From positions 32,001 through 96,000 of the IMG/VR virus record IMGVR_UViG_3300005259_000074: DNA of 64,000 nt. One strand, 5' to 3'. Under the pieces are notes generated by a model. The model was given only the letters and a program-made list of their open reading frames with translations. It had not been told where the DNA came from and ran no database searches. This document shows, one piece after another, positions 1 to 63,598 of this stretch. This DNA is from a virus (lineage: Duplodnaviria > Caudoviricetes). The position numbers and the translations under genes were made by a program. Positions within the stretch are counted from its first letter, which is position 1; each line of letters starts with the position of its first letter.

Positions 1-1587
1 CACATCTGCAGTAGAACTCACATCTTATCTGTTTTCCAATGTAAGCTGAACACCAGTACTTTCGAAACCAGTCGGGATGATCATCATGCGCACACGCTAT
101 GTACATGTCACAAGTCCTCGTAGACTTCGTTGAAGTGGGCGTTGATCCTCGCAGAACTCCCTTCGCAGACTTCAGAACTCTCGTCTCCGAACTCGCATCC
201 ACCGCCGGACCTCTGTTTGTAGTACTTGCACTTCGCTTGGAACTTGCGGAGCCTCTTTATCTCCTTCTTGTAGCGGTAGTCTTCGCTCAGCGGTATCTTG
301 GAGTAGTACTTCGCGAGGTGAGGCCACGTCTCGAGTTCGCACTTCCGCTCCCGCTCAGCGGACTCGAGGAACAGCCGCAGCCAACGCCTAGGCGAACACA
401 CGTAGTACACGCGAGGAACGCGAAGATCATACAGCAGCGGTTCTTCGCGTTCTATGAGGCAGAGGTTGTCTTTGTCGCTTCGAAATTTCATATCTCGTCT
501 AATTTTATATATGCCTCTTCAGCCATAGCCGCTTCGAGGTTTGTGCAGATGCGAGGTGACACTCCAGAAACGTACACACACTTTCCGCCATGGTGCATGC
601 TCATCTCGTAAAACTCGCAGTCCATCTCTTCGTCTGCTTTACAGAATTTGAAGAAGTATGTGATCGGCGAAGAGGGTTCGCTCGACTTCACGCACGTCAC
701 TTTCATTCGTGGCCGCTTCATATCATGTCTAAGTCCTCTTCACTCTGTAAGTCATACCACGCTTTTACTGAATTGCACCTGTAAGTCATGATGTCGCACC
801 ACTTGCACTCGCGTTCTCTCTTCCCAAGTTCGAAGTACTTGCACGCAGTCTGCCCACCATCAGGAAGACAGAGCAAGGGTTCATCCAGTAGTTTCAGAGC
901 TTTTAATTCTTTCACAAGTCCTCCATCTTCCTCTCGAGGTGCGCTTCTTCGCAATAGCACCGCCTCTTGACGTCAAAAGGGTTGTAGAACTTACACGCAG
1001 GCCAGTGAGGCTCCATCTCACCGGCCCTGCGCTGGAAATAAGAACAATCTTCTTGGCCTCTGTTCCAGCGTATGCCACCGCATATCCACATTCTATCTCT
1101 CTGCTCGCAGTAAGAAGTAGCTCTGATCACACTTCCTCCATAGCGTACGCCAACCTCGCTTCTTCGTTTGTGCACTCGCAGTTGTTCGTGCTGTGTTCAC
1201 AGATAGTTCGGTGATCATAACTCGTCATGTCTATCTTAAAGTACCGGCAAAATCGCTGATTGATAATGGACTGGTATGGAGGGTTGCAAATCCACTCATG
1301 TTTTCTTCCACCGTCAAAAGAGACGCAGAATGATATAGAAGTGTCTATTGCTTTCATCATATGTCGTCCATCGCTCTGTCTAGCCCTATGTTGGAGATAG
1401 CTTCAGCGCACGTGCAGTCATTTAACAGAGTATTATCGGAGTAAGAGAGGTACTTGCACTTCGACAGCGAAGCATATTCATCCTCCGGCTCATAGTATGC
1501 GCATTTCTCTTTATTTCCGTAGGAGTCAAGAAAACTACAAGCGGGCTTCTTTCCGTCGATCCTCTCTATGCAGAAGTTAGTCCTCAT
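1..1587 (-). repeat. Cys-rich mini-protein array A (7 CDS: 1..106 partial, 108..491, 488..721, 718..915, 912..1130, 1127..1360, 1357..1587)
   Basis: Members have 5-6 spaced Cys with CxYF/CEFY cores and tails YEDL, KLDEI, DLDMI, KMEDL, AMEEV, AMDDI, and are linked by 4-nt start/stop overlaps. 1..106 was read manually as MYIACAHDDHPDWFRKYWCSAYIGKQIRCEFYCRC and runs off the window. Confidence 0.85.
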
Positions 1588-1594
1588 AGATCAT

Positions 1595-1930
1595 TCACCA
1601 CTCCTCTCTTCTAGAGTAAGGAAAAGCTATAGCGTTCAATCCACTACGAGTGAGCTCAGCGACTATGTTGCTAGCGCCGACAGGATTCATCGAGTGCACT
1701 ACGATCTTCGTGTTCTTGAGGTGTCCTTCAGCGATGATCCACCTGACGAGCTCTATCATGTCCCCACCCTCACCTAGGTCGTGGTCAAAGAAAGCGACGT
1801 CGTAGTCGTCCCACTCTATCATTCCCTTAACGCCTTCGACCGTCTTCGCCGGAGCGATCTTGTGTTTCTCGAAGCGCGAGAAGAACCAGTCGATGCGCTT
1901 TTGGTCGTCATCTACGATGAGTATGTTCAT
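1595..1930 (-). CDS. cyclic-phosphate-processing receiver-like (cREC) domain protein
   Basis: MNILIVDDD...FFDHDLG...KIVVHSMNPVG matches the stand-alone phage receiver-like family. Confidence 0.7.
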   Translation of the reverse strand: MNILIVDDDQKRIDWFFSRFEKHKIAPAKTVEGVKGMIEWDDYDVAFFDHDLGEGGDMIELVRWIIAEGHLKNTKIVVHSMNPVGASNIVAELTRSGLNAIAFPYSRREEW

Positions 1931-1954
1931 GCAGCTCTCCTGTCAATGATAGTC

Positions 1955-1990
1955 AATATAACCCCCAATTCACAGGATGTAAAGGGAAAT
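1955..1990 (-). promoter_or_regulatory. sigma70-like early promoter
   Basis: The minus strand reads TTCCCTTTACA-N17-TATATT, upstream of 1930 and array A. Confidence 0.7.
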
Positions 1991-2159
1991 CAGCACAAAT
2001 TTTTAGTTGTTCTACTCAAGAGATTCAACGCCAACCACTTATAAGAAAATACGAGAAACTGATGAAGTTCGCTGTACAACGTTCACTTCCAGAGTTATGG
2101 TATACACGTAAGAGGGACAGCGGCGTCCTTCGACAAACAGTAAGGAGGAGACTGTTGAT

Positions 2160-2633
2160 ATGTACGCTATTCACGTGACAAGCAAAGACATTCAAACTGG
2201 TTCTCTTCTAGTCAGCAACCAGACTCAACAGCAGACTTATAAGTTGGTTTTTGAACTTTACAACAGAGTCGCGCTACGCTTAGGAATCAACCTTTTCCCA
2301 TCTTACGGATACGCGTATCGCACTGGGCAACCGAAGATCAAATCATTTTCGGGGGTCTCTAAGTTCTACTTAGTTGAGTCTAGCGACGTTCTAGCTTGTG
2401 ATTTGAACTTTTCAGTCTATGTGACTATGGAATCTTTCTTGTCAGCAAGACAGTATGACGGAAGAACTCTCCAAGAACGTCTCTCCAACAGGGAACAATG
2501 TGTAATGAGCAGAGCTGAGGCCTATTTTAAAAACCCTGTTCCGATAGAAAGAGAGGAATTAATTTCACCCTCTTGGAAAATCGTAAGACGCATAGCTTTT
2601 GAGGATATCCAAGATGATACTTTCTCCAACTGA
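2160..2633 (+). CDS. hypothetical protein
   Basis: 157 aa ORF with AGGAGG upstream; AT-richer than its neighbours. Confidence 0.7.
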   Translation: MYAIHVTSKDIQTGSLLVSNQTQQQTYKLVFELYNRVALRLGINLFPSYGYAYRTGQPKIKSFSGVSKFYLVESSDVLACDLNFSVYVTMESFLSARQYDGRTLQERLSNREQCVMSRAEAYFKNPVPIEREELISPSWKIVRRIAFEDIQDDTFSN

Positions 2634-2645
2634 TATCATGAAACA

Positions 2646-8524: not shown

Positions 8525-9559
8525 ATGGTTACAAAGAGTGAACTAGCGAAGTCCAACAGGACGAGTGGCTGTCGAGCGTGGTCGAGTGATCCGAAAGAAC
8601 GGAAAGGACTGTGCCATGCTTACACGAAGTGCTACTGCAAGTGGTTCAAACCTCTAGACAGAAGAGTTGAAGACTACAGGACAGCGGCATGCCGCTTTCA
8701 CAACGGCGGTTACTGCACGTGCTGGGCTGCCCTCCGAGAAGCTCGAGAAGAATTCATGAAGCAGAGAGTCGCACAAGCGCTGGAAGAACTATGAAGACGA
8801 TACACAGTCACTGCTACATGATAATGACACCCAGAGGCCATCAGCACACGTGCTTGTCAAAGGTCGTGTCTTTCTGCAAGTGGTCTGTCGAGGCGACTGA
8901 CGGGAGATGCGAGCACGCATTCTTCCATTCCGACGACAGGACAACAGAGTGCATGCGCTCGGAAGCCAGAGAAGAGACCAGCGAGTACGAGGCGGCGTTG
9001 AGGATGGAAGAGATATGAAGACAATAAACCACTGCATTACGATGGAGGCGCATTTCATCAAGAAGTTCGCAGACGAACGCCAACCCGGCGACCACATGTG
9101 CGTGTCCATCGCGCAAGATTACTGCAGATTCTTCCAACCGGGACACGAGAGGTGGACTAACGGTGGGATGTCTTTCATGTGCGCGCACTGTAAGACCGAT
9201 GAACACAAGAATTACAACTGCACGTGCAAAGAAGCGATCGCCGACGCAGATGAAGCGCTCTTAGCGGAGAAGTTAGAGGAACTATGAAGGAAAATTGCTG
9301 CATCACCATAACTAACAGCATCACGCTCTTCAGAAAGAATCTCACTCCGGGAACTCACTACTGCGCGTCTAACATCTCGGAGTTCTGCAAATTTTACAAA
9401 AAGACAGTAGAGACGCTGCGTAGTTCATGCGGTGAGATTAAGACTTTCAAGTGCGCTTGGAATATGTCTCGCGATAGTGCTAGTAGTGTCTGCACTTGCA
9501 AGGAAGCGATAGATGAAGCCGACGAGGACGCCATCGCAGAGAAACTGGAAGATTTGTAG
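8525..9559 (+). repeat. Cys-rich mini-protein array B (8525..8794, 8791..9018, 9015..9287, 9284..9559)
   Basis: Cys skeleton; tails ALEEL, RMEEI, KLEEL, KLEDL; ATGA overlaps. The last two members are visibly close paralogs (CTCKEAI.(D/E)ADE...AEKLE.L). Confidence 0.85.
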
Positions 9560-9562: not shown

Positions 9563-9595
9563 TTCCCTTTACATTTCATGGAAGTGGATTATATT
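9563..9595 (+). promoter_or_regulatory. sigma70-like early promoter
   Basis: TTCCCTTTACA-N16-TATATT upstream of 9625. Confidence 0.65.
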
Positions 9596-11555: not shown

Positions 11556-11860
11556 GACTCGAGAAATACGACGTGTTCAAGTGCTCTCACGATTGCGCGA
11601 TAACGCTGGTCGAAGACGACAGATTTTCCGTGTCGTTCACTAGAGGGTTATACGTCGTCCTGATTGCAATACACGGACCACCGCCGCACAACCTTGTTGA
11701 ACTCTACGGAGTGTCTGGCTTAGACCCACTCATAATCCGTAACATCTCCAAGAGAGTCTCCGTTGAGACCCTCAAGAGGAGCATGGACTTCGGGTACATG
11801 TCTTACGACGAGAAAGATTCTCTGGAACTCAAAACCAACCACAAGTTGGAGGATCTGTGA
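11552..11860 (+). CDS. hypothetical protein with tag KLEDL
   Basis: GTGA overlaps on both sides. Confidence 0.7.
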   Translation: MRLEKYDVFKCSHDCAITLVEDDRFSVSFTRGLYVVLIAIHGPPPHNLVELYGVSGLDPLIIRNISKRVSVETLKRSMDFGYMSYDEKDSLELKTNHKLEDL

Positions 11861-12580
11861 AGGAGAACCTCTGTAAATTCTACGGCGTAAAGATCTACGC
11901 TTGCAATTGTTTCGACCCCGGGCACCAGCACCTCCCTCCGGTGTCGGACTGCAAGTACTTTGAGCAAGATGGAGTCTCAGAGAGACGGTGCATGCACTCC
12001 CATGGAACTTGGACGTGCCACTGTGGAGAAGCTCATCTCGACGCCAAAGCGACTTACACTATGGAGAACTTATGAGTGTGAGAGTCCTCGCAGATATGCC
12101 CAGCAGGCTCTGCATCGTCGGAGACGGACCGGTGTTCGTGTGTCAGGCTGACGTGTTCTCTGATGGGCATTGGAACTGCGCCAAGTACTCTAGTAAGAGC
12201 GGTCAGTATACGTGGTGCGAACATGCTGTACACACGGAGGGTGGGCTCTGCGTGTGCAGACACCCGGAATTGCTGGTAGATCTCGCACTAGAAGGACTGT
12301 GAGGATTTCAGTGGACAAAGTCAACTTGTGCAAGCTGATAAGGATTAGGTACTACTGCTTCTCCTCGAGGATCGAGAGCTCTAGGAAGAGAACTTACAGA
12401 CGGAGAGACTGTGTGTACTTTAAGCGGGGAAGAAAACGAGGATCGAAACAGTTGGACTGCACTTACTGCTTAAAACCTGGCGCTTATTGCACCAACCCAC
12501 AGGCGAAATCAGACGCACTCTCGGCCAAGAATGCAGCTGAACTAGAATCGAAACTGGAAGACAAACTAGAACTGATATAG
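11857..12580 (+). repeat. Cys-rich mini-protein array C1 (11857..12075, 12072..12302, 12299..12580)
   Basis: MKENLC../CKYF/C.H..C.C skeleton; tails TMENL, ALEGL, KLELI. Confidence 0.8.
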
Positions 12581-13712: not shown

Positions 13713-14725
13713 ATGAGTACTCTAGAAGCAAAGAATTACTGCGCCTACTCGGACGTCTTTGGAATGCCCGTCAAGAGGTTCAAGTGCGAGAAACCAAAGG
13801 AGTCTACCAAGTGCAAGTACTACGAAAGTGACGAGACACCAACGACTCAGATGAACGAGTGCATGCACGAGTCTTTCGGGGTCTGTGCAAGGAGTGCAGC
13901 TAGGAAGGAGGCGTTAGCCGAAGTTGAACTGATGGAGAGACTGGAGAACATATGAACAAGTACCTATCCAGAGCTATAGACAGCATCGAGCGGTTCGAAC
14001 TCTTCATGGTGATCGGAGGCGTACTGACGATCTTCATCAAATCAGCCGTCGATGCAGCCTTTGATCTCGTGCACGAACACACGGGGTTTGACATCATTCT
14101 GATGGTGTTGGGAGCCACAGGGGTCATCTGGAATATCATTCTGATCTACACGGTGTTCTCAAGAGCTCGCAAGTACAAGCGAGATAAGGAAGAGCGCTTG
14201 ATTCTGGAGAAGTTAGAAGATGTGTAAGGTCAACAGGTGCTGGATAAGGAATTTCGACGGTCTCTTCGACGACGTCTACACCTGCACTTGCTCACAAATT
14301 ATCATCAGCAGATCTCCTAACATATTCGACTACGACACGTGTCAACACTTCGTGCAAGTTCCGGACTACGCAGACGAGATGTGCAAGTACGAGGTATCGA
14401 GGCCAATCGTCGGCATACTCTGCGGATGTCCAGAAGCGCAGGACGACGCCGAAGCAAACAAGAAGTTGGAGGAACTGTGAAGAGGAACTTGTGCGGAAAG
14501 TACGGTGATGTGTTCATCTGCGAAGCCGAAGATAGGACGTACGTTCCTGTACGTCCTTCATCACTATTTGAAGACAACCATTCTACGTCTCAAGAAGATT
14601 GCATGTACTACAAGAAGGGTACTCCACTCTACAACGAATGTTACAACTTAGTGAACGGAATAAAGTGCAATTCTAAGAGAGCTAGAAAAGACGCCAGCAT
14701 AGTAGCTATGATAGAAGCTCTATGA
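13713..14725 (+). repeat. Cys-rich mini-protein array C2 (13713..13955, 14220..14480, 14477..14725) interrupted by tagged membrane ORF 13952..14227
   Basis: Cys skeleton; tails RLENI, KLEEL, MIEAL. Confidence 0.8.
13952..14227 (+). CDS. 2-TM membrane protein with tag KLEDV
   Basis: Two hydrophobic helices followed by a basic-acidic tail. Confidence 0.7.
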   Translation: MNKYLSRAIDSIERFELFMVIGGVLTIFIKSAVDAAFDLVHEHTGFDIILMVLGATGVIWNIILIYTVFSRARKYKRDKEERLILEKLEDV

Positions 14726-26768: not shown

Positions 26769-27257
26769 TTTAGACAACTTGTGCAGACCCTGGGGTCTCT
26801 CAGTCGACTCACAAGGACACTGTTTCGGAGCTGATCCATTGATGGGTCCATATGGTTCTGGTTTCGATCGTCAGACCGAGTGCGCTTACTTCGAATACTC
26901 CGCAGTAAAAGACAGATGTAAGTTCTTCATCGGTTATCGCAACTGCAGTTGTGATAGAGCCCTGGAGAACGCTATCGTGGCCAGAAAGATAGAAGACCTG
27001 TGATGAAATCTCCTCTGTGTAAGAGTTACTGGAACGGATGGCACTGCGAAGCTTCGCGGATTGACCTGACGTGGTTTCCACCGACATTCGTCTCTGACGC
27101 TGAGAAGCAATCCCAGTGTGAGTTCTTCGAACGAGACAACAAGAATGAATGCCGATGGTTCAATGTTAACATCAACAATTTCCACGTGTTCAGCACCTGT
27201 TCGTGTGGTGCTGCCCACGCGATGGTGTTGGCCGACAAGATAATGGAAGATTTCTGA
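26752..27257 (+). repeat. Cys-rich mini-protein array D (26752..27003, 27000..27257)
   Basis: Cys skeleton; tails KIEDL, IMEDF. Confidence 0.8.
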
Positions 27258-31258: not shown

Positions 31259-31345
31259 TAAAATAACACGCGAATGATGTTTGTAAAGGGAACTAGAGGA
31301 TTTTTCTTCAGTTTCCTTTACATCTTCATTTCAGATTGTATTATA
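31259..31345. promoter_or_regulatory. divergent early promoters
   Basis: Minus strand TTCCCTTTACA-N16-TATTTT; plus strand TTCCTTTACA (TTTACA at 31317) -N16-TATTAT. Confidence 0.6.
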
Positions 31346-38000: not shown

Positions 38001-39588
38001 GGTCATCGTAGTACTCGCATTCATGATTCTTCATAGCGAGCAGCATGCAGTAGTACTTTCCATTTATCGCTTTAGAGCAGGCGTTCATAGTTCCTCTATG
38101 TTGAATTCGACTGCCGCGCTGAGGATTGCATCGCAACTGCTGCACCTATTCATCATCTTCCAGCCTATGTCGGAAGAGACGTCTACTTCGAAAGCGCACC
38201 CTAAGTAGGTCACGTACTTGATGTGGGTTGAAGATGGTTGTTCTACCGCTTTTTTCCGAGAAAAGGGATCGAATTCACATGGTTGAGATAATATGTTTTT
38301 CGCCATCTCGTGTCGCTTAGTGCAGTAAGCCACTCGCGTGGTGTTTTCGCGCTCTATCTTGCAGTAGTTCATCATAACTCTTCCATCTGTTTGTCTAGTA
38401 TAGCTTCTTTGCTATTGCACAGAGCAGCCGTACCTCTTAGATTTTCGTACATACACCTCTGTATCATCTTACTGAAGATTTCTCCTGGTTCATAGTATAC
38501 ACACTCACAACTACCTAATATAGTTTGACAGTAATAAGTCTTATCGATCAGAACGCACTTGTTGTCTTTCACAACCTCTCCAACGCATATGACAGCTTAG
38601 CTTCTTTCGCCGCTTCTTCGCAATAGCACTGGTGCCCGTGGCAGTGGAGACAGCCGTTCTTGTCATCGCCACGAGACACGAAGTACTTGCACTCCTCTGC
38701 AGCCATGTCAAAGAACTCTGACTTGCGCCAGCACATCTCCCTTTTTACAGAGCACATGTTGATTAAACGTTTCACAATTCCTCCAGCACGTCGGCAATTG
38801 GGTCTGTTGCAGCGATAGCGACGGGATTTTTACACACTCTAATGTTGGGGTTCGATTTAAGTATCCCGGCGAACTGACACCAAGACTTGTGGGACTTCTT
38901 GAAGAACTTACATCCATCCCACATCGACATTCCAGATAGTGAAACGCACTTCCATCCAGCGACCCGGTCGTACTTACACATGTTAGTCTTCATATCTCTT
39001 CAATCTTCGCTGCGGTGATGGCTTCTTCGCAAGTGCACAACTTCATGCGCCTAACTCCAGATAAATTCTCGTATATTAACGTCTTCGTGTGTGCGCACAT
39101 TACCCACCACGTAGTGGGATTCCGATAGTCGCACGCCCCTCGCGAAGTCAGATTGACACACAATGCTCTACCTTCTTCGTCTATTTTACAGTGGTTCATA
39201 TGTCTTTTATCTTAGCTTCGAGACACGCCGGCTCACAACGACACACATAACCGCTAGATATCTGTACGCTAAACTTGCACTTCTCCAGACTCATGTCTGA
39301 GTACTCACACTGACTCATCGAGTAGAAACCAGTCCCAAGACACACGAACGCGTCTCCAGCAGCTTCGCAGAGGGTGTAATCGCACTTGTGCTCTTCTTCA
39401 GAGAACTTTATGGCTGTTCCACACTTGCATACGTACCGAGAGTCCCTGTGCCACTCTGCATAAAAGCACTTGTTGCAACCGGTATCTTGCTGCACGTAGT
39501 GGACGCACTCCTTCTGTCCAGCGTCTTTGACACTACAGTAGTTGCCAGTCTCGTTCCTGACGCACAAGTTGTTTGGGAGCTCCAACAA
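32053..39588 (-). repeat. Cys-rich mini-protein array F, 28 CDS (32053..32265, 32262..32465, 32462..32710, 32723..32956, 33933..34145, 34147..34395, 34392..34649, 34646..34903, 34900..35154, 35151..35402, 35399..35611, 35608..35892, 35889..36104, 36101..36310, 36307..36519, 36516..36737, 36739..36963, 36965..37207, 37204..37422, 37419..37646, 37643..37882, 37879..38088, 38085..38375, 38372..38572, 38569..38775, 38772..38993, 38990..39199, 39196..39588)
   Basis: Cys skeleton and tag in every member; near-continuous overlap chain, interrupted by 32971..33936. Confidence 0.9.
32971..33936 (-). CDS. GFVSNSS-leader protein with Cys-rich C-terminal part and tag SIDNL
   Basis: Start reassigned to MKTRRGFVSNSSTTSF at the ATGA overlap; several CxxC motifs. 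Confidence 0.75.
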   Translation of the reverse strand: MKTRRGFVSNSSTTSFVVDLGSRSMPALAAELILSRNPISDEELQFLDAINDMFDLPIDANIALSLSANNFCFPSSGCNTRIAKVGDVVACNASMNDHFSDQDRGVKGVRRTGRDKLQIEFDGESFNMSGIPFADVSMSKVLRGLVERTQYDKWENCHRKKSCWDDQAEFKFAGASYQRFCEACFPVLQPFAKTKKDHIALSSSVIQQTTPCHLIDRICGGDDKYCKMCVFKKKDIGHKMFSGVSTFERLYEKSLQTLCQEMKERIIVDPIPTCFMCGAPKDLTEFFEDKETHRMPMEAALCDPCLRNILDIGIYSSIDNL

Positions 39589-39605: not shown

Positions 39606-39640
39606 CTATAATCTACACCACAATTGACATTTGTAAAGGG
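39606..39640 (-). promoter_or_regulatory. early promoter heading array F
   Basis: TTCCCTTTACA-N16-TAGATT; a divergent TTGACT-N17-TAGTAT lies on the plus strand at about 39663-39691. Confidence 0.65.
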
Positions 39641-39711
39641 AAATCTGAGAAAAATTTCTATTTTGACTCCGGCATCCATTTCGCCTAGTATTCTACTGGA
39701 AAGGAGGACTC

Positions 39712-40008
39712 GTGAAGAAGTTATTGTTGACTCCGGAAGAAGACGCCGTGTTAGATGAGGCGTTCACTCGGATAGCTGATGTCCTAGAAGTCGCAGTATG
39801 CTCGTGCGATCCCGAAGTCGAGAGCGACGAGGGTACTCGTAGAAAAATTGATCGAGTGCTCCAATGGTTTGTCGCAGAGGGGTTCTTCTTGGGCTTCATC
39901 TCTCGTGTATTAGAAGAAGAGAGAATTTACGCCAACGGAGTGTATCTAGCACCGATAGAAGTGACTATAATGTTCGAAAGCGGAGCGACAATAGTCGATA
40001 AAATATGA
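39712..40008 (+). CDS. hypothetical protein with tag IVDKI
   Basis: AGGAGG RBS, GTG start. Confidence 0.7.
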   Translation: MKKLLLTPEEDAVLDEAFTRIADVLEVAVCSCDPEVESDEGTRRKIDRVLQWFVAEGFFLGFISRVLEEERIYANGVYLAPIEVTIMFESGATIVDKI

Positions 40009-42315
40009 TCATGGGGTTAGACTACATCTACTTAGAACGGGGGAGGGGACCTGCGTACAGCATCTTCGATAAGAAGATGAAGTGTCTTGGTCTCTCAGGT
40101 AAGTCTATCCCAGGGTGCAAGTTCTATGTCAGAAAGAAGAAGCTCATCCCCTTCTTGGTACTCAAACTACTGCAAGTGAAGGAGGAAGATCGGTGCACTC
40201 CTTTCGAAGTGGGTGACCTAGCCGACATCACCTGCGAGTTCCACAGAGAGAAAAACACTTGTGAAAATCCCGAAGTCAAACTGGAGTTTGCCCTAGAAGA
40301 GGTATGACTGTGTTGAAAAGTAAGCGCGAGAGCTTGTGTAAGATTGGAGATGGGTACTATTCGTGCAACTTTGAGTTCAGATTCTTTGACGACTGCGTCC
40401 ACTTTGAACATCTCGACAAAAGGCACATTCCAGGCGTCTGTAAATTCTTTAGGTCAGTCGTAGACACTAACACTATGAAGCTGAGATGCATATGCTCGTG
40501 TCTCGAAGCGGCGGCCGCCGCTGAATTGGAGAACTTGTGAGCGAGAACTTCTGCCGGCTCAGAGAGACAGGATACGAGTGTGTTGGCTGTGCTGTCTACA
40601 ACAATGGTGGGTTAGGTTGCACATTCAGGAAATCCGCACTTGGGTCGCAGTGTTCATTCGTCCGAGTTGATGTCGTCGAGCTGTCAGAATGCAAACATGT
40701 CATGTTCTACCACTGCGGGAGTAGAGACGCTCAGATCGAAGCTAAACTCGAGGAAGTCTGATGATCTTGAAGAACATGTGTCAAACGTATTTCAACGATG
40801 GAGTGGGAATGCTAGGCGGAATTTGTCCGCTCAAGGTGAATGATACTGGGTGTGTTCATTTCATAGCGTTCGTCGACGTTAATAAGAACATCTATTGCAT
40901 GCACTTAGGAGTCGCTGGCAACTGCTACTGCTCTAAAGCGATCAGAGAGAACACCACTCCTGACATGAGAACACTCCAAATTCTAGAGGAAATGTGATGG
41001 AAAACTGCTGCGTCCCTAATAGAGACGGAACATTCAAGTGCACTGCGTACGCTCCCATATCAGGCAACCACTGCAGGGTGTGCAAGTACTACGAGTCATG
41101 GTACTTGATGTACTTCGGAGAGTGTAAACACCTCTGGAGGACTAACGCAGGATCGCTCACTCGCTGCGAGTGCACTAACGAGTGGGCGCGCATCGGAGAG
41201 GCAATGGAGGAGATATGAGCATTCCCAAATCGACGCTGCGCATCGACGTATACGACACGCACAGACGGGTCCCGGTTGAACTGATCGATCCCATGTGCGA
41301 GCAGATGGTGCAACTAGAAGAAGAGGGTATGCTGTTGACCAACAAGTTGGGCATCACGCCCGGGCGTCTATTCTCCGCTGAGTCGTTCAGGAGTGATGAA
41401 TTTGGTCTGACTGCTCCCGAAGATTCGGTGTTCTTCGCGCTGATGGACGATCGCGTGCTGGCGGGATACTCTCTGTACAGGCACAACGCAGGCAGGTTGA
41501 GGATAAGTGCGCTGTACGTCGTCCTAGAGTACCGGGGACGAGGGAACGGCCGCAGATTGCTAGAGTGCGTGTTGGCCCACATCGAGGAACACTATCCGTG
41601 TTCCAGCGTGGAGATCGGAGTCATCGCTAACAACACCCGAGCTCTGAAGTTGTACGAAGACTTAGGTTTCACAGTCCCGACTCACTACACGTTCATGAGA
41701 TCGAAATGAACTGCTGCCGCATACTCAGAGCGATAGAACCGTGCGAAGAGTACCCTCGTGGGGAGATTGAGACGTCCTGTGGTGCCGAAGATGATTTCAG
41801 GTCGTGTGAGCACGCCTTTCTAGCTGAAAATGATAGGTGCATGCACTGGTGTTTAGGGTACGACAGCTGTCGGTGTCATCAAGCTATCATAGATAATCTG
41901 CCAAGAGACATCAAAATTTGGTTGAAATTAAACGACATATGAAAACTAACGAATGTTTATATGTTATATTCTTAAACGGAAGAGGCGGGTATTGGTGCAA
42001 TGCAGCTCTCGCGCATAGCGCCGTCAGCAAAGAAGTGACTTTCAACGGTTGGATAGAGCGAATGAACCACTGCGAGGGTTTCTCACTAGAAGAGGGAAAC
42101 ACTTTCTGCAAGTACTTCAAGGAGAAGGAGACGACGTGCACTCACCGAAGATTGAGAAAAGAAGCTCGCCTCCTTTACAAATTAGAAGAACTGTGACGAG
42201 AGAGGAAGAGATCATCGATGAATGTATGATGACTTTGCTAAAAGAAGCTTTCGCAAAGGCGATAGATGAAATTACAAGTGATATGGAAGCAGATGATAGA
42301 CTAGAAAAGTTATGA
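40005..42315 (+). repeat. Cys-rich mini-protein array G (40005..40307, 40304..40540, 40537..40761, 40761..40997, 40994..41218, 41706..41942, 41939..42196, plus Cys-poor tagged 42193..42315)
   Basis: Skeleton, tag and overlaps; interrupted by a GNAT gene. Confidence 0.85.
41215..41709 (+). CDS. GNAT family acetyltransferase
   Basis: ISALYVVLEYRGRGNGRRLL (motif A) and NNTRALKLYEDLGF. Confidence 0.88.
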   Translation: MSIPKSTLRIDVYDTHRRVPVELIDPMCEQMVQLEEEGMLLTNKLGITPGRLFSAESFRSDEFGLTAPEDSVFFALMDDRVLAGYSLYRHNAGRLRISALYVVLEYRGRGNGRRLLECVLAHIEEHYPCSSVEIGVIANNTRALKLYEDLGFTVPTHYTFMRSK

Positions 42316-46049: not shown

Positions 46050-49000
46050 TTACAGTGAATCTAAGCTGTATTCTATCGCAGCTTCCGCGATAGCATCTTC
46101 GCACTTGCATATGCGAAGCGAGAACTCTCGGAAATGACAGTGAGTTACTTTCCTCGCGAGGAAGATGCGCTCTTCCATCTTTTTGTAGAAGACGCATTCT
46201 TTTTCGCGGCTAGTATCACAGACGAAGATGTGATCTGGAGCGTGTGCCACGCTGTCCTCTCTAGAGCACATGTTAGTCTTCATATATTCTCCAGGGTTAA
46301 AACACACAACGCATCTGTCCTAGCGTCTTCACTTTCACAAGCGTAAATGAATTGCATGTTTTTGCACCACCAACTAGACGAACTGTCTTCTGGTTTTTCG
46401 TAGTACTTACATCTTTTCACGCTCGACATGCTGCAGTCGCATAAGAAACTCCTCTGACCACCGCGATCGTCGATGCGACAATAGTTCTCTTTAGTCTTCA
46501 TAGTTCTTCAATCTTTCTCAGCGCCCAGTACTCGTCTCTCATCGCTTCTTCTATAGTGAAGTTCATGCACCTCCGGAATTTTCCTTGGTACTTGTGGTGT
46601 ATGCACCAACCGCTCTTGTCATTTTCTCTGAAAGCGCAGTCTTCGATATCCATTGGACTCTCACAACCCAATGTGATGTACACCTTTTCATTCTGAGTGA
46701 CATCCCATGTAAAAGCGCTGACGCTTATGTTAGTCTTATTACCCAAGCAAGACGTAGTCTTCCACTGTTCGGTGTCTTTCACAACAATTCCAATCTGTAC
46801 TGCAGTTCGGCTTCTGGATACATTTCCTCATTCCCACAACGCATCCAACGATCGTCGACTCCGTAGAATATACACCGTCTCATTCCATCTTCAAGATCTT
46901 CAATGTATCCAATGCAATGCTCTTGGTCTTTGGGCGTATCATATGCTGCGCACTCTTTGTTGCCATATTTGTCAATACAGCATAGATTTTTCTTCTTCAT
47001 ATGTCTTCTAACTTCATCTCAGCGATTTTCATTGGAAGCCACACGCTGATTATAGTCGGATGATGACATATTTCTTCATATCTTACACACATATCACAGT
47101 GCCCTCCGTCTAACCGCTTCATCGCCCCGTACTGGCACAGGTGATTCTGCTCGCCGCTACTGCATATAGCCCGGTCTTCATCGAAGAGCACTGTGAAGAA
47201 GTTCTCGATGTCTCTCATGATGTCGTCATCGGTCACATCTTTCACAGCTGTTCTAACCTCAAGTCCACTGAAGCGTCGGCTATAGCTGCTTCACAGTGAC
47301 ACTCTCTCAATCCATTCTCCCTGAACTTACACGAACGATGATGCACAGTGATCTTTTCGTAGAACACACAGTAATCCTCGTTCCCGATGTCACACGCGAA
47401 GAAACCATCAGAAGGATCTAACCAGAATACCTCCCAAAAGCACATGTTTCTTTTCACAGTTCTTCTATCTTCTTTCTGACGTCCTCTTCCAGATGAACGT
47501 CGATGCTTCTACAATATCCACCTTCCCTGTGCACACAGCTAAGTCTGTTGAAGAACAGCCCTCTTACGTAGAACTCGCACTTCAGCTCATCTTCCTCTTC
47601 TGTTGCACTGCACCAGTAGAGGTATTTCCCGAAGAACGGCTGCAACGAGCGAAAGCAGTTGTTCACAGAGACCTCATTTTGGCGTCTACTATCGCATCTC
47701 TGTTCTTGCACAGCGATTCTACAACAAGCACACTGAGGATCATGGATATGTGTAAGTGAATGCATCCAAATGCTTTATCATCATCTCCTTCAAAATATTG
47801 ACAAGGTGGTGTCGTCTTAGAAGTATATGTACACCTATAGAACTCCTCTCCAGTCTTATCTATTGTCCATATCTCGCACATGTTGTCTCTCATATGTTGT
47901 CTAACGCTGATTCGGCTAGTGCGACCGAGTTGGTGCACTCTTGTCCTTGTCCGCGTGACTTCACATATATGCATCCATTCCAACACGATTCCCATGTATG
48001 AGGATCAGCTTCCGGAGCACACTTGAAGTGTATGCAAAGATTAATGCACATATTAGTCTTTGCATTAGTAACTATCTGTCTAAGGCACTTTCCCCCGACG
48101 ACGCAGTTGTTCTTCAAGTAAACTCTCATAGTTCCTCGATCTTTCGCTCTATCACTGCATCTTTACTCTTACATCGCCCCCAGCGACGCCAATGAGCGCA
48201 ACACGCGTCTTCTTTTCCGCACTCGTAATAATGGCACAGCAGCATCTCGTACACTGTTGAAGTATCACAGAAGTACTTTTTGTTTCGCTCTATACACAAG
48301 TTCTTCTTCTCAAGGTCTTTCATATGCTGTCTAACTTAAAAATACTCTGTGATTCTCTCCACGCTTCTTCATTAGCGCACCAGAAAGAAAATTTAAAACG
48401 CTTATTGTGACCGCATAGGTAGGTAGTCTGGTACTTGCATCGCATGCCAGTGTAGCTGTAATTCATCCGCACGAAGAACTTACACTGACTGCTAGTACAT
48501 ACTCTATCCGCAGAGCACCTGTTATTCTTAGTCATGATACTTTTAGATGTCCTCCATCTTCGCCGCCGTGAGTGCTTCGGAGTTCCAGCACTTGTTCACG
48601 TCAAATTCTCCTTCTTTCTCGTGGTGGGCGCAGGCTGGCGTGATGTCTCTGAGGTTTATGCTATGCTTGTAGAATGTGCAGAAGCGTTCGAAAGATGAAT
48701 TGATGGTCATACAAGCACCGTCTACGTGGCAGCAGTTCAATTTCTCGTCGAGTGCGTTTAGATCTTTTGTAAAAGAGATGAGTGGAATCATAGTTCCTCT
48801 ATCTTAGTGTCGAGGAGTGCTTCACTGCACGTGCAGTGAGGTATAGACACGCTGTTGGGATCTCTGATCATCGTCCTCCAACGGCACTGGTTGTCAGCTG
48901 ACTCTCCAAAATAAAAACAAGTGCTGTACATATGACCGGGTGAAAGACACCACCCTTCAGGTGTGCAGAAGTTGAATCCACTGGTCCTCCGCAGTTCTGC

Positions 49001-50255
49001 TACGAATTCGTCTACGTCTGTCATAGTAGTTCCATCTCGATAGATAAGATAGCGTCTTTGTCGCTGCAGGCGTATACGTCCGATGAGACGCTGTCATCTG
49101 CGATGCGATGTCCCAAGCACATCAACAGCTCTTTGTCTAACTTAAAGAAAGGGCACTTATCCTCATCTTCGAAGCCGTTAGCAGTGCACTGGTAGTCCCC
49201 ATTATCAGACCTAGCTATCACGTCACTCGTCATCTTGTATGTAGGTGAACTGCCTCCCCGGTCCAGACGATCGCATGTCAGCTTCTGCTCCTCCATCTTC
49301 GTCGCTGAACGTCATGTAGTACACGTCATTACCAATGAACTTCTTCGAGATCTCTCTCGATATGATGTTGTACCCCAGGCACATGATGAGGGCCTTCTCT
49401 TCGTCGGTGTCGTACGTGTCATCGACGTCTATGATCTTTGAGATAGTGTCATGTTCTTTGTTGATGACATCGCGCAGCAATTTATCGATGTCATTGTGTG
49501 ATCTCCTAGACAGAGTAGTTGCATTGTCGTTGTACTTGACTCTCGACACCAGCGCATGCGCGACTCCGATAGCGCTAGCCGAGACATTCGCGAGTTCTTG
49601 GTCGATCACAGGGCGCTCGTCTTCACTGCACTGGTCCAGCAGTTTATTGCGTTCTTTTGGGTCTTTCGGAATGACCACTATGAACGAGGAAGAACTGCTG
49701 TTCGAGACGAATCCATTTCGAATCTTCATATGTCTTCTATCCTCTTTGTCAAGTTGAATTCTTTCAATAGAGTGTCGAGCAGATCCTCACTAGCGCAGTA
49801 CTTCTTGCGTTTCAACGTGAAAGAGTCTTCGCACGCCTTCTTGTTCCCTTTCCAGAACTCACACTTACCTTTGTCAGTCGCGAGACACTCAGCTGGATTG
49901 TTCACAGCATCCCACTTGTCCTTCGCGTCAGTCTTTGCTGCGTGTTTCATCAGACATCCTCTAACTTGAGATTAATTGCAGCCTCTCTGCTGGTGCAGAC
50001 TACTATGTCTACCGTACCGCTAGAACCGCTGATCATCCTACTACCGTGCCACAGCTGAGACCAGCGACATGCCGTAGAGAACCTCCACTTATCCGAAGTG
50101 ACGATAGTCGAATGCGTCTTCTTGTAGAAAGAGCACTTGGTCATCTGCTCGTAGTTCTTACAGCTGCACCACCAGCGGTCAGCCATCCACTTCGTGTTAG
50201 CAGACGTTCTAGACCCATCGTACTTCTTACAGAAAGAACTCTTGTCTCTCGGCAT
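46050..50255 (-). repeat. Cys-rich mini-protein array H, 16 CDS (46050..46283, 46280..46501, 46498..46782, 46779..47000, 46997..47245, 47242..47457, 47454..47666, 47663..47893, 47890..48129, 48126..48323, 48320..48535, 48543..48791, 48788..49024, 49021..~49233, 49726..49950, 49950..50255)
   Basis: Skeleton, tag and overlaps; interrupted by 49223..49729. Confidence 0.88.
49223..49729 (-). CDS. GFVSNSSSSSF-leader protein
   Basis: MKIRNGFVSNSSSSSFIV. Confidence 0.8.
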   Translation of the reverse strand: MKIRNGFVSNSSSSSFIVVIPKDPKERNKLLDQCSEDERPVIDQELANVSASAIGVAHALVSRVKYNDNATTLSRRSHNDIDKLLRDVINKEHDTISKIIDVDDTYDTDEEKALIMCLGYNIISREISKKFIGNDVYYMTFSDEDGGAEADMRSSGPGRQFTYIQDDE

Positions 50256-52969: not shown

Positions 52970-55388
52970 ATGAAATCCCCATACAATACGTATGTTCATC
53001 CATATGGGACTTTCATAACCTGTAAAGTACCTCCGGATGAACAGTGCACACACGCATGTAAGTACTTTGGATGTAGAAATGAATATCTTCCAGTAACTTT
53101 GAAATATGCTGGACAATGCCGGCACTTCTCGTGGTCGAACAGCGAGTGCATGAATCCAGATGTCAGGAAAGAAGTGAAATTGGTAGAGGAGATGGAACTA
53201 ATTTGAATATCAAAGATGAAACGTACTACGGCTTCACATACAATCCCCGGTGGAAAGCTGATTGCAAGAACGGTATCCACCTCTGGGACGAGGTGCTGTC
53301 TGCGGACGGACACTATCTAGTGTGTGATGAGTGCCAGTTGATGATACGCATCGAGAGCAAAGCGGTAGACCGCTCGTACGAAGAGCCAGAGTACTCGCTC
53401 AACAAGAAACTGGAGGAGATATGAATGCCCCACGTTCGTGCTGCAAGAGGATAAACGGACGCTTCTTGTGCTACCGCTACGCCGTCCCGGAAGCAGTGTG
53501 CGCGTATTTCTTGCACAAACCGGGTGTTCATGATGACCCTAAGTTAGTGCCATCTAGATGCGAATTCGCGTTAGATCCAGCTATTACAGGCACTTCTACC
53601 AAAGGACTGATCACGATAGAAATCTTCGGAGAGTGCTTCAACGACGAGGCGAAGCTGTTAGCTGAGCTGGAGGAGATATGAACGGCTGCGAGATTATAGT
53701 CTGTGACACTGGAGATGCTTGGGCAAACTGCAGGACATCGACGGAGAGCAATCTGATAGAGACTATGTGTGAGTTCTTTAAAGATACTTCAAACACGTAT
53801 CCACAGTGTGTCTACAACAAAAAGTTCCCGCAGTGTACTTGTATCACGGCGATAGAGAAAGCTTGTGCACAGCAGGGGATAGACACCTCGGTCATATGGA
53901 ACTCCATAGCAGAAGAAAAATTGGACGACATATGACATGACAACACCGTCGACAAGAAACAACCAGTGCGTAGTAACGAAGCAGACGGGTGGAACATTCT
54001 ACAAGTGCGTCGACAACAGATTTCCCTTTCAATCTGCGTGTTCGTTCTTTGTGCTGTATCTTTCTCTGTACAAATGCAAGTACTATGAGTCACAATGCGG
54101 CAATTGCACCAACAAAAAAGCGATGAGAGACGCACTCGCAATGAAGAGATTGGACGACTTATGAGCCAGAAGAAGAACTTCTGCGTCTGGAAAGACACTA
54201 CCGACGTGATCGGCCTCAGCTACTCTTATGCTAGGTGTGAGGCGTCTTTAAATATGTGGAGACATCAGACGGAATGCGCATTTTTCGTCCCAAAACTCAA
54301 ATGGTCAGACTCTTGTCTATTCTTCGCGTTCGACGAACTTCCAACGTGTTTGTGTAGCGCTGCTATCAGTGAATCACAACTCATGAAGAAGATAGAAGAC
54401 ATATGAAGAAAAACATGGGTGTGATAGTTGAGAGCAAAGCTACGAACACAGAGGAACTACTGTGCATTGCGATATCTGACTTCTTTGAAACGGAGTGCAA
54501 GTTCTATTCACAGTCTGAAGGTGAATTCCGAATATGTAAGCACGCTTTAGATTCTCACTTCTGTGCATGTGCAGAAGCTAAAATGGACGCACTGACAGAT
54601 AAGAGGATGAACCAGAAATGAGTGTGGACTATATGAGATCCTACAGGTTAGACATGGAGAATAACCGAAAACGTAAGAAGACGTTGGAACCGATGCAGAA
54701 CTTCTGCAAGGTGTACGAAGAGCTCAACACCGTCACTAGAAAAGTCGACACTGCGCAGAAGACTTGCGCCGCGCCGTCTAACCAAGCGTACCGCTGCACG
54801 TTCTTCAAGTTCAAGTGTCATGACACATGCGAGTACATGGAGTGGTCTGATGAGTTAGACTGCACTAACAAAGAAGCGTACAGAGATGCGATGACGAACG
54901 AGAAGTTAGAGCAGATATGACTGGCTGCAAACTCATCAACAATAGCACCGTGAATTCGGACGGCTTTCCAGTGTGCGGCATAGATATGAACTCGCAGAGC
55001 CTGTCGACATGCGATCACTACACGAGGTACATGGGTTACAACGGTCGACACACGTGTTCCAATTATGATCGGAAGTACAGAGAGTGTCTCAACGAAGAAG
55101 CGATAAAGGAAGCGAAATTAGACAGACGATTGGAGAACTTGTGAAACGACTGGAGAACGTCACTATCGCGGGCACCCGTTCACTAGTCTTTCCGCGGTAT
55201 ATGATATGTCTTCACAGGATAAAGTACTCGTGTGGCAGTACGAGTGTCGTGACAATATGATAGAGGAGAACGTTAAGTCTATGATTGACAACCGCCGTTC
55301 GTGCAAATACGTGAGGCTGCTGTCCAATAACGACGTATTCTGTATTCACGAAGAAGCAACACTACAAAGAAGACTGGAAGAACTATGA
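52970..55388 (+). repeat. Cys-rich mini-protein array I (52970..53206, 53421..53681, 53678..53935, 53937..54164, 54161..54406, 54403..54621, 54618..54920, 54917..55144, 55206..55388; tagged non-family 53203..53424)
   Basis: Skeleton and overlaps; tag in all but 54403..54621 (ends KRMNQK). Confidence 0.85.
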
Positions 55389-56466: not shown

Positions 56467-56721
56467 ATGAAAGAACAGAGTAAGACAACAGATGCTGTAA
56501 AGACTGTCACTATTCCAATGTCACTAGTCAACGACATCAACCACGCTCTCTTTGAAGCAGATATTGCGATGACTGAGTTCTGGCAAGTGCAGGAGAAGCG
56601 CTTCGCCAAAGAAGAATTCACTAAGCGAGCGGTGTTAGGCGCTCTGACGGACAAGATCCTCTTCATGAAAGCCGCTAAAGAAAAATTGGAAGAAGCTGCT
56701 ATCACACAGCGCCGAGGATGA
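56467..56721 (+). CDS. hypothetical protein
   Basis: AAGGAG RBS before MKEQ. Confidence 0.6.
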   Translation: MKEQSKTTDAVKTVTIPMSLVNDINHALFEADIAMTEFWQVQEKRFAKEEFTKRAVLGALTDKILFMKAAKEKLEEAAITQRRG

Positions 56722-60661: not shown

Positions 60662-60901
60662 ATGGAACACATAGATATAAAAGAACACTGTGAACCGGTG
60701 TATTCATCTAGTCATCCACCGTACTTGCACTGCAAATACCAGAACGAGTTTTCCGAAAGAATGTACCGGTGTCCGATGTTTGAATCATCTTTCGTCGACA
60801 AAAATTTCTGCTACTGGTTCATTGCGAGAGATCGTGGAGAGTGCCGGACCCCATCCGCGCTGAAGGAACTAGAAGTAGATGAGAAGATGGACAGCATATG
60901 A
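60662..60901 (+). CDS. Cys-rich mini-protein (tag KMDSI)
   Basis: HC..HC..RCPMF..FCYW..EC. Confidence 0.75.
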   Translation: MEHIDIKEHCEPVYSSSHPPYLHCKYQNEFSERMYRCPMFESSFVDKNFCYWFIARDRGECRTPSALKELEVDEKMDSI

Positions 60902-61772: not shown

Positions 61773-61984
61773 TCGCCAGCTCCTGGAAAGTCGGGTAGGT
61801 CTAACTTCTCGTGCGAGTAGTCCGTCGGGTCAGCAGTCAACCTATTGCACTCTCTATTCCAGCAAACCGAGCACAACTTCTGCTCGTTCAGCTTGCTGGG
61901 ACGGCGGACGTTGCACTGCAAACCGCAGCGCTGGCATATCTGCATCCTGATGTTGTACCGGTTCTCCATGTCTCTATTTATCAT
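61769..61984 (-). CDS. small Zn-finger-like protein
   Basis: CQRC...CSVC. Confidence 0.55.
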   Translation of the reverse strand: MINRDMENRYNIRMQICQRCGLQCNVRRPSKLNEQKLCSVCWNRECNRLTADPTDYSHEKLDLPDFPGAGE

Positions 61985-62039
61985 TTCAGAAACATCTCGT
62001 TGATAATTAACGACTTAGAAGAAATAATGCGAGTTTCCC

Positions 62040-62122
62040 TTTACAAGCCCACTATTTGGTTGTATATTGATTACCATTAAGGGAACTTAACACGGGCTTC
62101 CGCCAAATGGAGAACGGAAATG
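62040..62122 (+). promoter_or_regulatory. repeated promoter-leader cassette, copy 3
   Basis: TTTACA-N17-TATATT-GATTACCATTAAGGGAAC..CGGGCTTCC..AAATGGAGA..ATG. Confidence 0.8.
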
Positions 62123-62431
62123 AAAGCAAGAACGAAGCGAGACCTCGAGATCGACCTCGACGTCATGACCAACCAGTACAACGAGGCGATGAAGAGGGCG
62201 AACGCGGCTGAAGCAAAACTTGCTCAGTGCACGAAGTACGCGGTCCTCCAACTCTGTCCCGCATATCCCACACTCGAAGACTTGAAAGGGGCAGAATGCG
62301 AGGCCGAGCAGGCGGACGTCAGAGACACCAAAGAAGACGCCAATATTCTTGCTCGCTATCGGAATGCCGTCAGCGTCACTGAAAATTACATCATCGCCGA
62401 AGTCTTCAACGGCAAATTCACCGGAAAGTGA
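62120..62431 (+). CDS. hypothetical protein
   Basis: First gene after the cassette. Confidence 0.7.
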   Translation: MKARTKRDLEIDLDVMTNQYNEAMKRANAAEAKLAQCTKYAVLQLCPAYPTLEDLKGAECEAEQADVRDTKEDANILARYRNAVSVTENYIIAEVFNGKFTGK

Positions 62432-62742
62432 GATACGCAATGGAGCAGACACTCAGGAAGTACTGCGATAAGACGGATTTTGGCATCATCCGTAAGACGA
62501 TAGCCGAGGTCGGAGCCCTCCACGGTTTCGGACATGGGACGGGAAAGATCTACTCGGTCCGTAAAGCGCTGGAAGACGCCAGCATACAGCCACCGCCGGT
62601 AGAATCTCTCGACGCCCTCATAGCGGTCGCCATCAACATCATTCGCGACACGGACCACGAACTGGCAGCTCGGTTCCAGAGCTACGACCTAGACGAGATC
62701 ACCACCGACGAATTCACCAAGAACATGAGGGACGGAAAGTGA
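62428..62742 (+). CDS. hypothetical protein
   Basis: GTGA overlaps. Confidence 0.65.
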   Translation: MRYAMEQTLRKYCDKTDFGIIRKTIAEVGALHGFGHGTGKIYSVRKALEDASIQPPPVESLDALIAVAINIIRDTDHELAARFQSYDLDEITTDEFTKNMRDGK

Positions 62743-63155
62743 AGACAGAAAACGTGCTGACTTTGCTCAAGAAGGTGGGGACTCCTGATGACGTGCTCAA
62801 TAAGATGAGGCTCGACATACTGAGTGACGGCGTTGAACCAGTCTTAGAGGGCTTCTTGGAGAAATTGAACCACGACGAGATCAAAAAACTCTGTTCTTCC
62901 ATCCGGACTTCTTACAGAGGCACGGTCAATTTCATACCGATTATCATCACAATGTTGAAAAACTTCTCGTCAGCCTACCCTGATCTGGACATGCGAGTTC
63001 TCATCGAGAAGACTGAGCGCGCGCGCGATAAAAAGGAATTTTTGAAAGAATTGCGCGAGGTAATGAACTTACCTCTTCAAGACAAAGCAAAGAATGACGC
63101 CGCTCGTCGGAAGTTCTTGTCTGAGCACTTCGCGAACATAATGAATGAAGAGTAG
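62739..63155 (+). CDS. hypothetical protein
   Basis: GTGA overlap. Confidence 0.65.
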   Translation: MKTENVLTLLKKVGTPDDVLNKMRLDILSDGVEPVLEGFLEKLNHDEIKKLCSSIRTSYRGTVNFIPIIITMLKNFSSAYPDLDMRVLIEKTERARDKKEFLKELREVMNLPLQDKAKNDAARRKFLSEHFANIMNEE

Positions 63156-63158
63156 GAT

Positions 63159-63598
63159 GTGGTGAAGCGGGAAAACGAGTGTTTCGACGTGGACGATCAC
63201 TGGGACGATGAAGTGAACAACTGTGGTTGTCGTTTCGATAAGAGGTTCTCCCGCTGCCTATTCTACTCGCCAGAGGATGCGGTGTACGACGACTGTAGGT
63301 GGTTTGACGGTTATAGGTACTGCCGAAACCCAGAAGCGATACGCAACAAGAACTTATACAGAGCGATTGACGAAATATGATGACCACTAAAAAGAACATG
63401 TGTTGCGATACTGATGACGTCTTAGGAGGTATGCAGAACTGGTGCGCTGCTACGTCTAGAGGACACCTACAATCGGAGTGCAAGTTCTATGGAAAACTTG
63501 CAACTGGATCGTGCTACTGGCGAGACAGATCTGCAATGTGCACTAACCCACTGGCGATAGAAGACAAAGACCTGACTAACGCACTGGAGAAAATATGA
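63159..63598 (+). repeat. Cys-rich mini-protein pair (63159..63380, 63377..63598)
   Basis: Skeleton; tails RAIDEI, ALEKI. Confidence 0.8.

Follow-up and report, generated by a model that had tools for sequence, protein, structure and literature searches.

Extreme lineage-specific expansion of a small cysteine-based protein family in a large T4-like phage

Introduction

The closest described counterpart of the system reported here is found in Bacillus phage G, which encodes ~35 copies of a lineage-specific zinc ribbon, an expansion that its authors regarded as unprecedented and for which roles as transcription factors or in DNA binding were suggested (Iyer et al. 2021, PMC7824862). In T4-type phages, hyperplastic regions contain so-called PeSL cassettes, i.e. 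units of an intergenic promoter and a stem-loop that are located between unrelated ORFans (PMC2839356, PMC4122927). Here we analyse a family of cysteine-containing mini-proteins that is encoded in tandem arrays within a 64,000-nucleotide stretch of viral DNA (bases 32001-96000 of the IMG/VR record IMGVR_UViG_3300005259_000074, hereafter the window) and elsewhere in the same genome. All coordinates refer to window numbering unless marked G000.

Like phage G, the virus is a very large phage in which one small Cys-based domain of unassigned role is present dozens of times. Unlike phage G, it carries 102-112 copies, about three times as many, and belongs to a T4-like lineage. The members furthermore lack CxxC knuckles, and their C-terminal end, here called the tag, doubles as the ribosome site of the next gene. 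Hereby, a search of phage G (JN638751) with the family profile A1 gave 0 matches at E<=1, the positive control being 102 matches in the phage's own genome. As in the T4-type hyperplastic regions, blocks of small, lineage-specific and probably early genes are placed between core genes, and conserved motifs at the gene boundaries could promote shuffling. In contrast to PeSL cassettes, the genes overlap by 4 nt without intergenic DNA, the boundary itself is coding (tag, Shine-Dalgarno (SD) sequence and start codon) and the genes are all paralogs. Instead of an intergenic promoter and stem-loop for each open reading frame (ORF), we find ATGA/GTGA overlaps, with promoters at array heads only.

Among large eukaryotic viruses, African swine fever virus (ASFV) with its MGF110, MGF360 and MGF505 genes and the poxviruses with their ankyrin and Bcl-2-like proteins possess big sets of diverged paralogs that are thought to act on host defences. 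The resemblance lies in the size and divergence of the paralog sets and in their location in variable genome regions. The ASFV and poxvirus families differ, however, in that their hosts are eukaryotic, their larger domains have known folds, and polycistronic coupling chains are missing.

Results

More than one hundred family members in coupled arrays

A hidden Markov model (HMM) was seeded with 47 ORFs of 60-86 amino acids that contain 5-8 Cys as well as the C-terminal motif; the sequences were aligned and the model was iterated. It matched 89-90 window ORFs at E<1e-3, compared to 0/552 shuffled ORFs. With starts trimmed before length and coverage were computed, the 90 members show a median length of 75 amino acids (64-129) and cover 21,402 nt, corresponding to 33.4% of the window. 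They form 16 same-strand groups, about ten of which are multi-gene arrays, on both strands. Nine additional, diverged window ORFs were matched with per-sequence E-values from 4e-8 to 1.4e-4, resulting in a window total of ~99. The original prediction for this DNA, of about 100 ORFs in about ten arrays on both strands that take up roughly a third of the window, is hence borne out. It had also proposed to build an HMM from the members and count the copies per genome. Our own HMM detects 112 members in the whole genome, scattered over 230 kb, while an independent six-frame profile search yields 102 matches with 0 internal stops. Pseudogenes or fragments of the family were sought in the genome and none were detected, in agreement with the earlier claim that the frames are intact throughout. 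At 102-112 copies, the family accounts for ~23% of the genome's genes and about a tenth of the genome, which makes it an extreme case of lineage-specific expansion, here of a small Cys-based domain and in a large phage. In the window, the family genes are arranged as follows:

108..1587, minus strand: array of 6 family genes (HMM matches)
8525..9559, plus strand: array of 4 family genes (HMM matches)
11857..12580, plus strand: array of 3 family genes, including the first modelled member (11857-12075)
13713..14725, plus strand: 3 family genes (HMM), interleaved with a non-family, tagged, membrane-like ORF (13952-14227)
26752..27257, plus strand: pair of family genes, convergent to the array that follows
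27258..31237, minus strand: 17 coupled genes (16 HMM members and the diverged 30804-30998), with collinear orthologs in the related contig L001
31349..31612, plus strand: single member, read from the divergent promoter region
32053..32956, minus strand: 4 family genes (HMM)
33933..39588, minus strand: chain of ~24 genes (22 HMM members and the diverged 33933-34145 and 37419-37691)
40005..42196, plus strand: 6 HMM members and the diverged 41706-41942
46050..50255, minus strand: 13 HMM members and the diverged 46498-46782, 47890-48129 and 49726-49950
52970..55388, plus strand: 7 HMM members, the diverged 53331-53681 and the truncated 55206-55388
60662..60901, plus strand: single member (HMM)
63159..63598, plus strand: 2 members (HMM)

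Within the chain at 33933..39588, 34392-34649 is the second member that was modelled, and 39196-39588 (minus strand) encodes a two-domain member with 15 Cys. The array at 52970..55388 stops where a radical S-adenosylmethionine (SAM) enzyme gene starts.

Conserved skeleton

Conservation was evaluated with a profile of 205 non-redundant members, comprising the phage's own and metagenomic sequences. The informative columns are M1, N4, C6, the aromatic residue before C20, C32-x-[FY]-[FY], C45-x-[HYFW], C56-x-[C/N/S], A61 and the last four residues, whereas every remaining column contributes <=0.4 bits. Four Cys are conserved in 97-100% of the members, as would be expected of the ligands in a generic Zn(Cys)4 or Fe-S mini-domain. 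Of the others, the first Cys occurs in 83%, and the sixth in 43%, its place being otherwise taken by N, S or H. Hence, the proposed Cys skeleton with variable loops stands insofar as all members belong to one homologous family; as a set of fixed cysteines it has to be narrowed to four. The number of Cys per member is odd in 101 and even in 104 cases. Signal peptides were found in none of 90 members, as had been stated in the original prediction; a hydrophobic run occurs in 1/90 and is unconvincing. Because four Cys are invariant, even counts are not preferred and signal peptides are absent, a metal site is favoured over obligate disulfides, and we infer that the four invariant Cys would form one such site.

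Predicted fold and database searches

An AlphaFold2 model of member 11857-12075, calculated with an alignment of 84 paralogs alone, reached a pLDDT of 88.5 and a pTM of 0.75. The model of member 34392-34649, which is 29% identical to the first, was based on 150 sequences and reached a pLDDT of 85.6 and a pTM of 0.72; the two alignments largely overlap, and the models are thus not independent. In both models, the predicted chain starts with a hairpin that closes at the second Cys. A variable loop then leads to a short turn, which precedes the third Cys; the fourth and the fifth Cys sit on short strands, and the chain ends in a helix that extends into the C-terminal tag. Structure prediction, suggested earlier as a way to look for one shared fold, accordingly returned confident models with the same predicted element order for two distantly related members.

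Neither model found a match in the PDB with Foldseek. In an exhaustive VIA-align search, which likewise gave no match, the first model remained without any hit of Z>=2 and the second reached a best Z of 2.6. No fold match was obtained in the AlphaFold database (AFDB) clusters, Swiss-Prot or BFVD, nor in the ESM Atlas, where the TM score was at most 0.52. At the sequence level, Pfam, PHROGs and NCBIfam returned nothing for the family, and megablast and tblastn searches for relatives in GenBank phages gave nothing useful. The junction DNA pattern described below retrieved chance matches alone, and no family members, from IMG/VR and the JGI metagenomes. In searches for related loci, the family alignment offered no conserved stretch and a helicase query gave nothing useful; a word-index protein search produced just 51 candidates, which were not useful. 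The family and its predicted fold are without a known relative, and, in line with the earlier remark that no described phage family with this architecture at this copy number was known, none came up in the searches.

A C-terminal tag that is also the gene junction

The pattern [LMI][ED][EDNSG][ILVM]-stop closes 89/883 stop-to-stop frames, compared to ~1 expected. Its DNA reads xTG/xTA GAG GAx xTA TGA, placing GGAGGA or AGAGGA four bases upstream of a start codon (ATG or GTG) that shares bases with the TGA stop. Of the 105 tagged ORFs, 64 end in an ATGA and 25 in a GTGA overlap (total 89/105), and the junction DNA follows the consensus aag.TgGAggA.aTATGAA. An SD-like sequence 4-9 nt before a stop-overlapping start, the hallmark of translational coupling, is hence found at these junctions, with an SD duplex energy of -5.3 kcal/mol inside arrays versus -1.9 kcal/mol for the background.

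Two simple explanations of the tag were considered and rejected. According to the first, it is a mere by-product of coupling. Unrelated genes with an NTGA overlap, however, end diversely, and the tag persists where the SD sequence has decayed. When genes with this NTGA overlap are compared, 99% of the family but 28% of unrelated genes of >=150 amino acids end in a hydrophobic residue, and position -3 is acidic in 91% versus 21% of unrelated genes; the complete tag occurs in just 6/71 unrelated NTGA-overlap genes. Where an array ends and no gene follows (22 cases), the SD pairing energy falls to -3.1 kcal/mol and the residue pattern is still present in 91%. The ends of the convergent arrays at 26752..27257 and 27258..31237 are both of this kind. 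The second explanation, a pure protein signal, conflicts with a codon bias towards GGAGG and with a lower proportion of synonymous differences (pS) in the tag: purine-ending Leu and Ile codons are favoured, GAG is used at 63% versus 45% in gene bodies, and in ortholog pairs pS amounts to 0.50 in the last five codons versus 0.71 in the loops. Since the protein-level pattern exceeds what coupling would demand, while the codon choice leans to the SD sequence, we conclude from the sequences that the tag is dual-coded, i.e. that it serves as ribosome site and start of the next gene and is selected as protein as well. The original prediction had recognised the tag as a protein feature, which it is, and had missed its second role as ribosome-binding site and overlapping start. 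A 15-nt block in this way combines the last turn of the predicted helix, the ribosome-binding site, the stop and the next start, which explains how chains of ~24 cistrons could be translated from one promoter.

The tag-like end is not restricted to the family. About 40 family-unrelated proteins of the genome share it, including predicted membrane proteins, a DenV-like glycosylase and several proteins of 280-400 amino acids. Hereby, the DenV-like enzyme ends in VLDSI, and the C-terminus of the family B polymerase, SDINSL, is loosely tag-like. Examples of unrelated tagged proteins are:

Window 2646-3764
Window 14764-15309
Window 24290-25107
Window 60161-60649
G000 215796-216638
G000 228272-229480

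As potential readers of the tag, PDZ domains and tail-specific proteases were sought in the genome and none were found. A gp45 clamp, sought as docking partner, was not identified in the genome either; the tag as a clamp-docking end is a candidate idea at most.

Promoters

The array heads carry sigma-70-like promoters, and for a phage consensus TTTACAT..N..TTATATT we count 15 sites in the non-coding 4.7% of the genome versus 1.9 expected (eightfold). The following sites were located:

39608..39691: divergent sigma-70-like promoters (minus chain TTTACA-16-TAGATT, plus chain TTGACT-17-TAGTAT)
31260..31344: divergent sigma-70-like promoters (minus TTTACA-16-TATTTT, plus TTTACA-16-TATTAT), heading the arrays on either side
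1955..1983, minus strand: promoter with the phage consensus, upstream of the first minus array
9568-9595, 15319-15346 and 39610-39637: phage consensus in non-coding gaps

The T4-type late promoter motif was found nowhere in the window. The promoter sequences suggest that chains of up to ~24 cistrons are read by the host polymerase, probably early.

Evolution and relatives

A profile search of 1.84 billion representative sequences retrieved 188 proteins at E<=1e-3, and 101 of the best 150 of these are foreign. Ten foreign matches were looked up; all are known from metagenomes only, none is functionally named and two are annotated as 'hypothetical protein'. Most foreign matches end in the same C-terminal tag, and a few are two- or three-domain forms. 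Two- and three-domain metagenomic relatives without the tag occur in other T4-like contexts (P0074, P0144, L095). Relatives were encountered in JGI 3300033121, in ERZ1426829 and in ENA and Logan samples.

The most informative relative is the 14.7-kb contig L001, which carries 37 members and is collinear with window positions 23566-37595. Hereby, 42/46 of its genes are reciprocal best hits in the same order. Whereas the helicase shares 92.7% of its residues with its counterpart in the window and the tail tube protein is fully identical (100%), the identities of the family orthologs lie at 30-86%, and they diverge ~7x faster than the helicase. Pooled over the loops of 35 ortholog pairs, the proportion of nonsynonymous differences (pN) is 0.33 versus a pS of 0.71; for Cys codons pN is 0.125. 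Within the genome, the closest paralog shows a median identity of 31% (maximum ~42% over full length) and is the neighbouring gene in just 10% of cases. Because paralog identity is low, orthologs are collinear and pN is below pS, the copies are old coding genes, each retained individually and evolving several times faster than core genes. The word library in the original prediction would suggest ongoing diversification, which is not supported: even the closest paralogs are only ~31% identical and the set is kept gene for gene, in order, in L001, as expected of a repertoire that is stable and yet evolves fast.

Genomic context

The virus record comprises 262,470 bp with a completeness of 97% (CheckV). 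The phage is a distant T4-like phage known solely from metagenomes. Its capsid protein shares <=37% identity with those of GenBank phages, none of which matches the genome at the DNA level (megablast). A gp21-type prohead protease and the family B polymerase are encoded outside the window in the same genome. IMG/VR classes the record as a provirus and lists the source contig with 313,637 bp, compared to the 262,470 bp of the record; such trimming of a T4-like genome could be artefactual, or the actual phage could exceed the record in size. Landmark and neighbouring genes in the window are:

17144-18532, minus strand: Gp23-type capsid protein
25113-26768: helicase
43644-45794: tail sheath
59236-60159: gp44-type clamp loader
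5398-5913, plus strand: 171-amino-acid protein with a GmrSD_N (DUF262-type) domain
6917-8503, plus strand: 528-amino-acid sulfatase-fold protein, matching OpgB/LtaS-type phosphoglycerol transferases and not true sulfatases
32971-33981, minus strand: 336-amino-acid protein with 17 Cys and no family assigned, embedded in the longest chain
55385-56458, plus strand: radical SAM/SPASM enzyme, starting by ATGA overlap at an array end
56718-57191, plus strand: nucleoside 2-deoxyribosyltransferase-like protein, adjoining the radical SAM gene

To judge from its matches, the product of 6917-8503 would be a phage enzyme working on the envelope. The protein encoded at 32971-33981 is 54% conserved in the related contig and its C-terminus, SIDNL, is tag-like. 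In a 219-kb contig, the pairing of a radical SAM homolog with a deoxyribosyltransferase-like gene recurs. The radical SAM enzyme itself stays below the cut-off of every curated family. An assignment as anaerobic sulfatase maturase for the product of 6917-8503 was dropped, the target being of the OpgB/LtaS type.

Discussion

The explanation that fits the data best, although we give it slightly less than an even chance as a whole, is that of an old, fast-evolving family of metal-tied mini-proteins which are made early from coupled chains and act as individually specialised binders. The products would be cytoplasmic proteins of ~75 amino acids, each predicted to have a beta-hairpin at its N-terminus, then a small sheet of three strands and a helix at its C-terminus. 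Invariant Cys from four separate segments would hold one tetrahedral site, most likely Zn(Cys)4 or possibly an Fe-S cluster, and this site would tie the chain together, leaving nearly all other residues free to vary. From the sigma-70-like promoters, host RNA polymerase would read the chains early in infection. The codons of K-[LMI]-E-[ED]-[IL] spell GGAGGA together with ATGA/GTGA and thereby couple translation of the next gene, while the residues themselves are also selected as protein and would form the last turn of the helix. By analogy, the members would most likely be a set of individually specialised binders of host or rival macromolecules, e.g. of defence or regulatory proteins. Several points weigh against this explanation. 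The convergence of the invariant Cys on one site is deduced from the conservation pattern, and the case for a binder role is made by analogy to small proteins that phages express early. Synonymous divergence (dS) is saturated between the available orthologs, so that positive selection on the loops cannot be assessed, and the high divergence could also stem from weak constraint.

An extended version of this explanation, which we consider unlikely but worth keeping in view, envisages more than 100 metal-knotted binders on an unseen fold, each tuned to a different host or competitor protein, with the portable end K-hydrophobic-E-E/D-hydrophobic as the address for one hub. Such a hub could be a clamp, a chaperone, a protease or a packaging partner.

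Rather improbable, in our estimate, is that the members are zinc-ribbon-like nucleic-acid-binding proteins, i.e. specific transcription factors or structural DNA or RNA binders. The phage G zinc ribbons provide a precedent for which the same proposal was made (PMC7824862), and the NEIL3 GRF zinc fingers give a weak profile match to the N-terminal half of the members (E=0.045 over the whole sequence). With the GRF zinc finger (PF06839; NEIL3, APE2, TOP3A) they have in common an N-terminal hairpin with Cys at both ends, an aromatic-x-Cys and a Cys-x-F-F element. The family has, in contrast, two more invariant Cys and a C-terminal helix, and with a domain E-value of 1.5 the match is below significance. 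Pfam Zn_ribbon_GRF (PF06839), with the pattern C-x-C/H ... GRxF-x-C ... C-x-FF-x-W, detects 0/84 members and nothing in the six-frame genome even at E<=10, and for both models a structure with the three-stranded GRF fold or a zinc ribbon is absent from the PDB Foldseek, VIA-align and AFDB Swiss-Prot results. Kinship with GRF zinc fingers would hence be a lead only. The isoelectric points span 4.1-9.8 and include basic members, as nucleic-acid binding would allow, but the median of 5.6 and a net charge of about -2.4 point in the other direction, as do the missing CxxC knuckles and the blank profile search of phage G. We judge it quite unlikely that the members are disulfide-knotted peptides working outside the cytoplasm, either as toxins or receptor blockers freed at lysis or as head-packaged proteins injected like the T4 internal proteins. 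Widely spaced single Cys and the late CxC do recall disulfide-rich mini-proteins, and T4 IPI* is of comparable size. The phage also encodes the gp21-type prohead protease, and many tags read hydrophobic-x-E and would in this respect resemble the gp21 cleavage motif; E at position -2 is, however, found in just ~43%. Unlike knottin-, EGF- or defensin-like secreted proteins, the members combine neither an even Cys number nor a secretion signal: odd and even counts are about equally common, 57% have another residue in place of the sixth Cys, and signal peptides are lacking. With regard to T4 IPI-III, in which gp21 cuts an N-terminal capsid-targeting sequence at L/I-x-E, the conserved N-terminus M-K-x-N-x-C lies within the modelled hairpin and would not be a cleavable targeting peptide.

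Equally doubtful to us is the view that the genes are filler under low constraint, or form a selfish gene accordion, with the junction as a coupling or recombination cassette and proteins of little individual function. This view would account for the conserved junction DNA, for the same end on ~40 unrelated proteins and for the fast divergence of family orthologs relative to the helicase, and it has a precedent in the PeSL cassettes of T4-type phages, whose conserved motifs shuffle small ORFs (PMC2839356, PMC4122927). It is opposed by the lack of recent duplicates and pseudogenes, by the gene-for-gene collinear retention in the related phage contig L001, by pN<pS together with the near-invariance of four Cys, and by tags that are kept where a downstream gene is absent. 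Very improbable, finally, are RiPP (ribosomally synthesised and post-translationally modified peptide) precursors, the Cys of which would be modified by the adjacent radical SAM/SPASM enzyme in a SCIFF-, ranthipeptide- or sactipeptide-like manner, with the constant C-terminus as recognition sequence. Apart from its ATGA overlap with the array end, the enzyme shows weak NCBIfam matches to the peptide maturases WgkB, ScmE and StsB, and the relative contig L098 keeps the arrangement of array and radical SAM gene. This reading is nevertheless unlikely because homologs of the enzyme (>3,000, at 50-60% identity, in other large phage contigs) occur in contigs without arrays: in the 219-kb contig, the homolog lies next to glycosyltransferase genes with no mini-gene array, and locus L100 is without a family member. 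Furthermore, the lone enzyme adjoins 7/112 genes, the remainder being scattered over the genome, NCBIfam precursor models gave no match for the two members scanned, and the members model as folded domains rather than as leader and core.

Conclusions

The family escapes Pfam, PHROGs and NCBIfam, and gene-by-gene BLAST is blank. Its scaffold of ~75 residues, with four fixed Cys, a few aromatics and almost every other position free, is an attractive template for engineered mini-binders. Should the extended version of the explanation hold, with the portable end addressing one hub, the system would represent a new type of phage counter-defence organisation as well as a natural mini-binder scaffold. 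If the members are individually specialised binders, they would exceed every paralog repertoire so far reported for a phage, with about three times as many copies as in phage G, and a phage would be able to keep more than 100 separate host-directed proteins over the long term.

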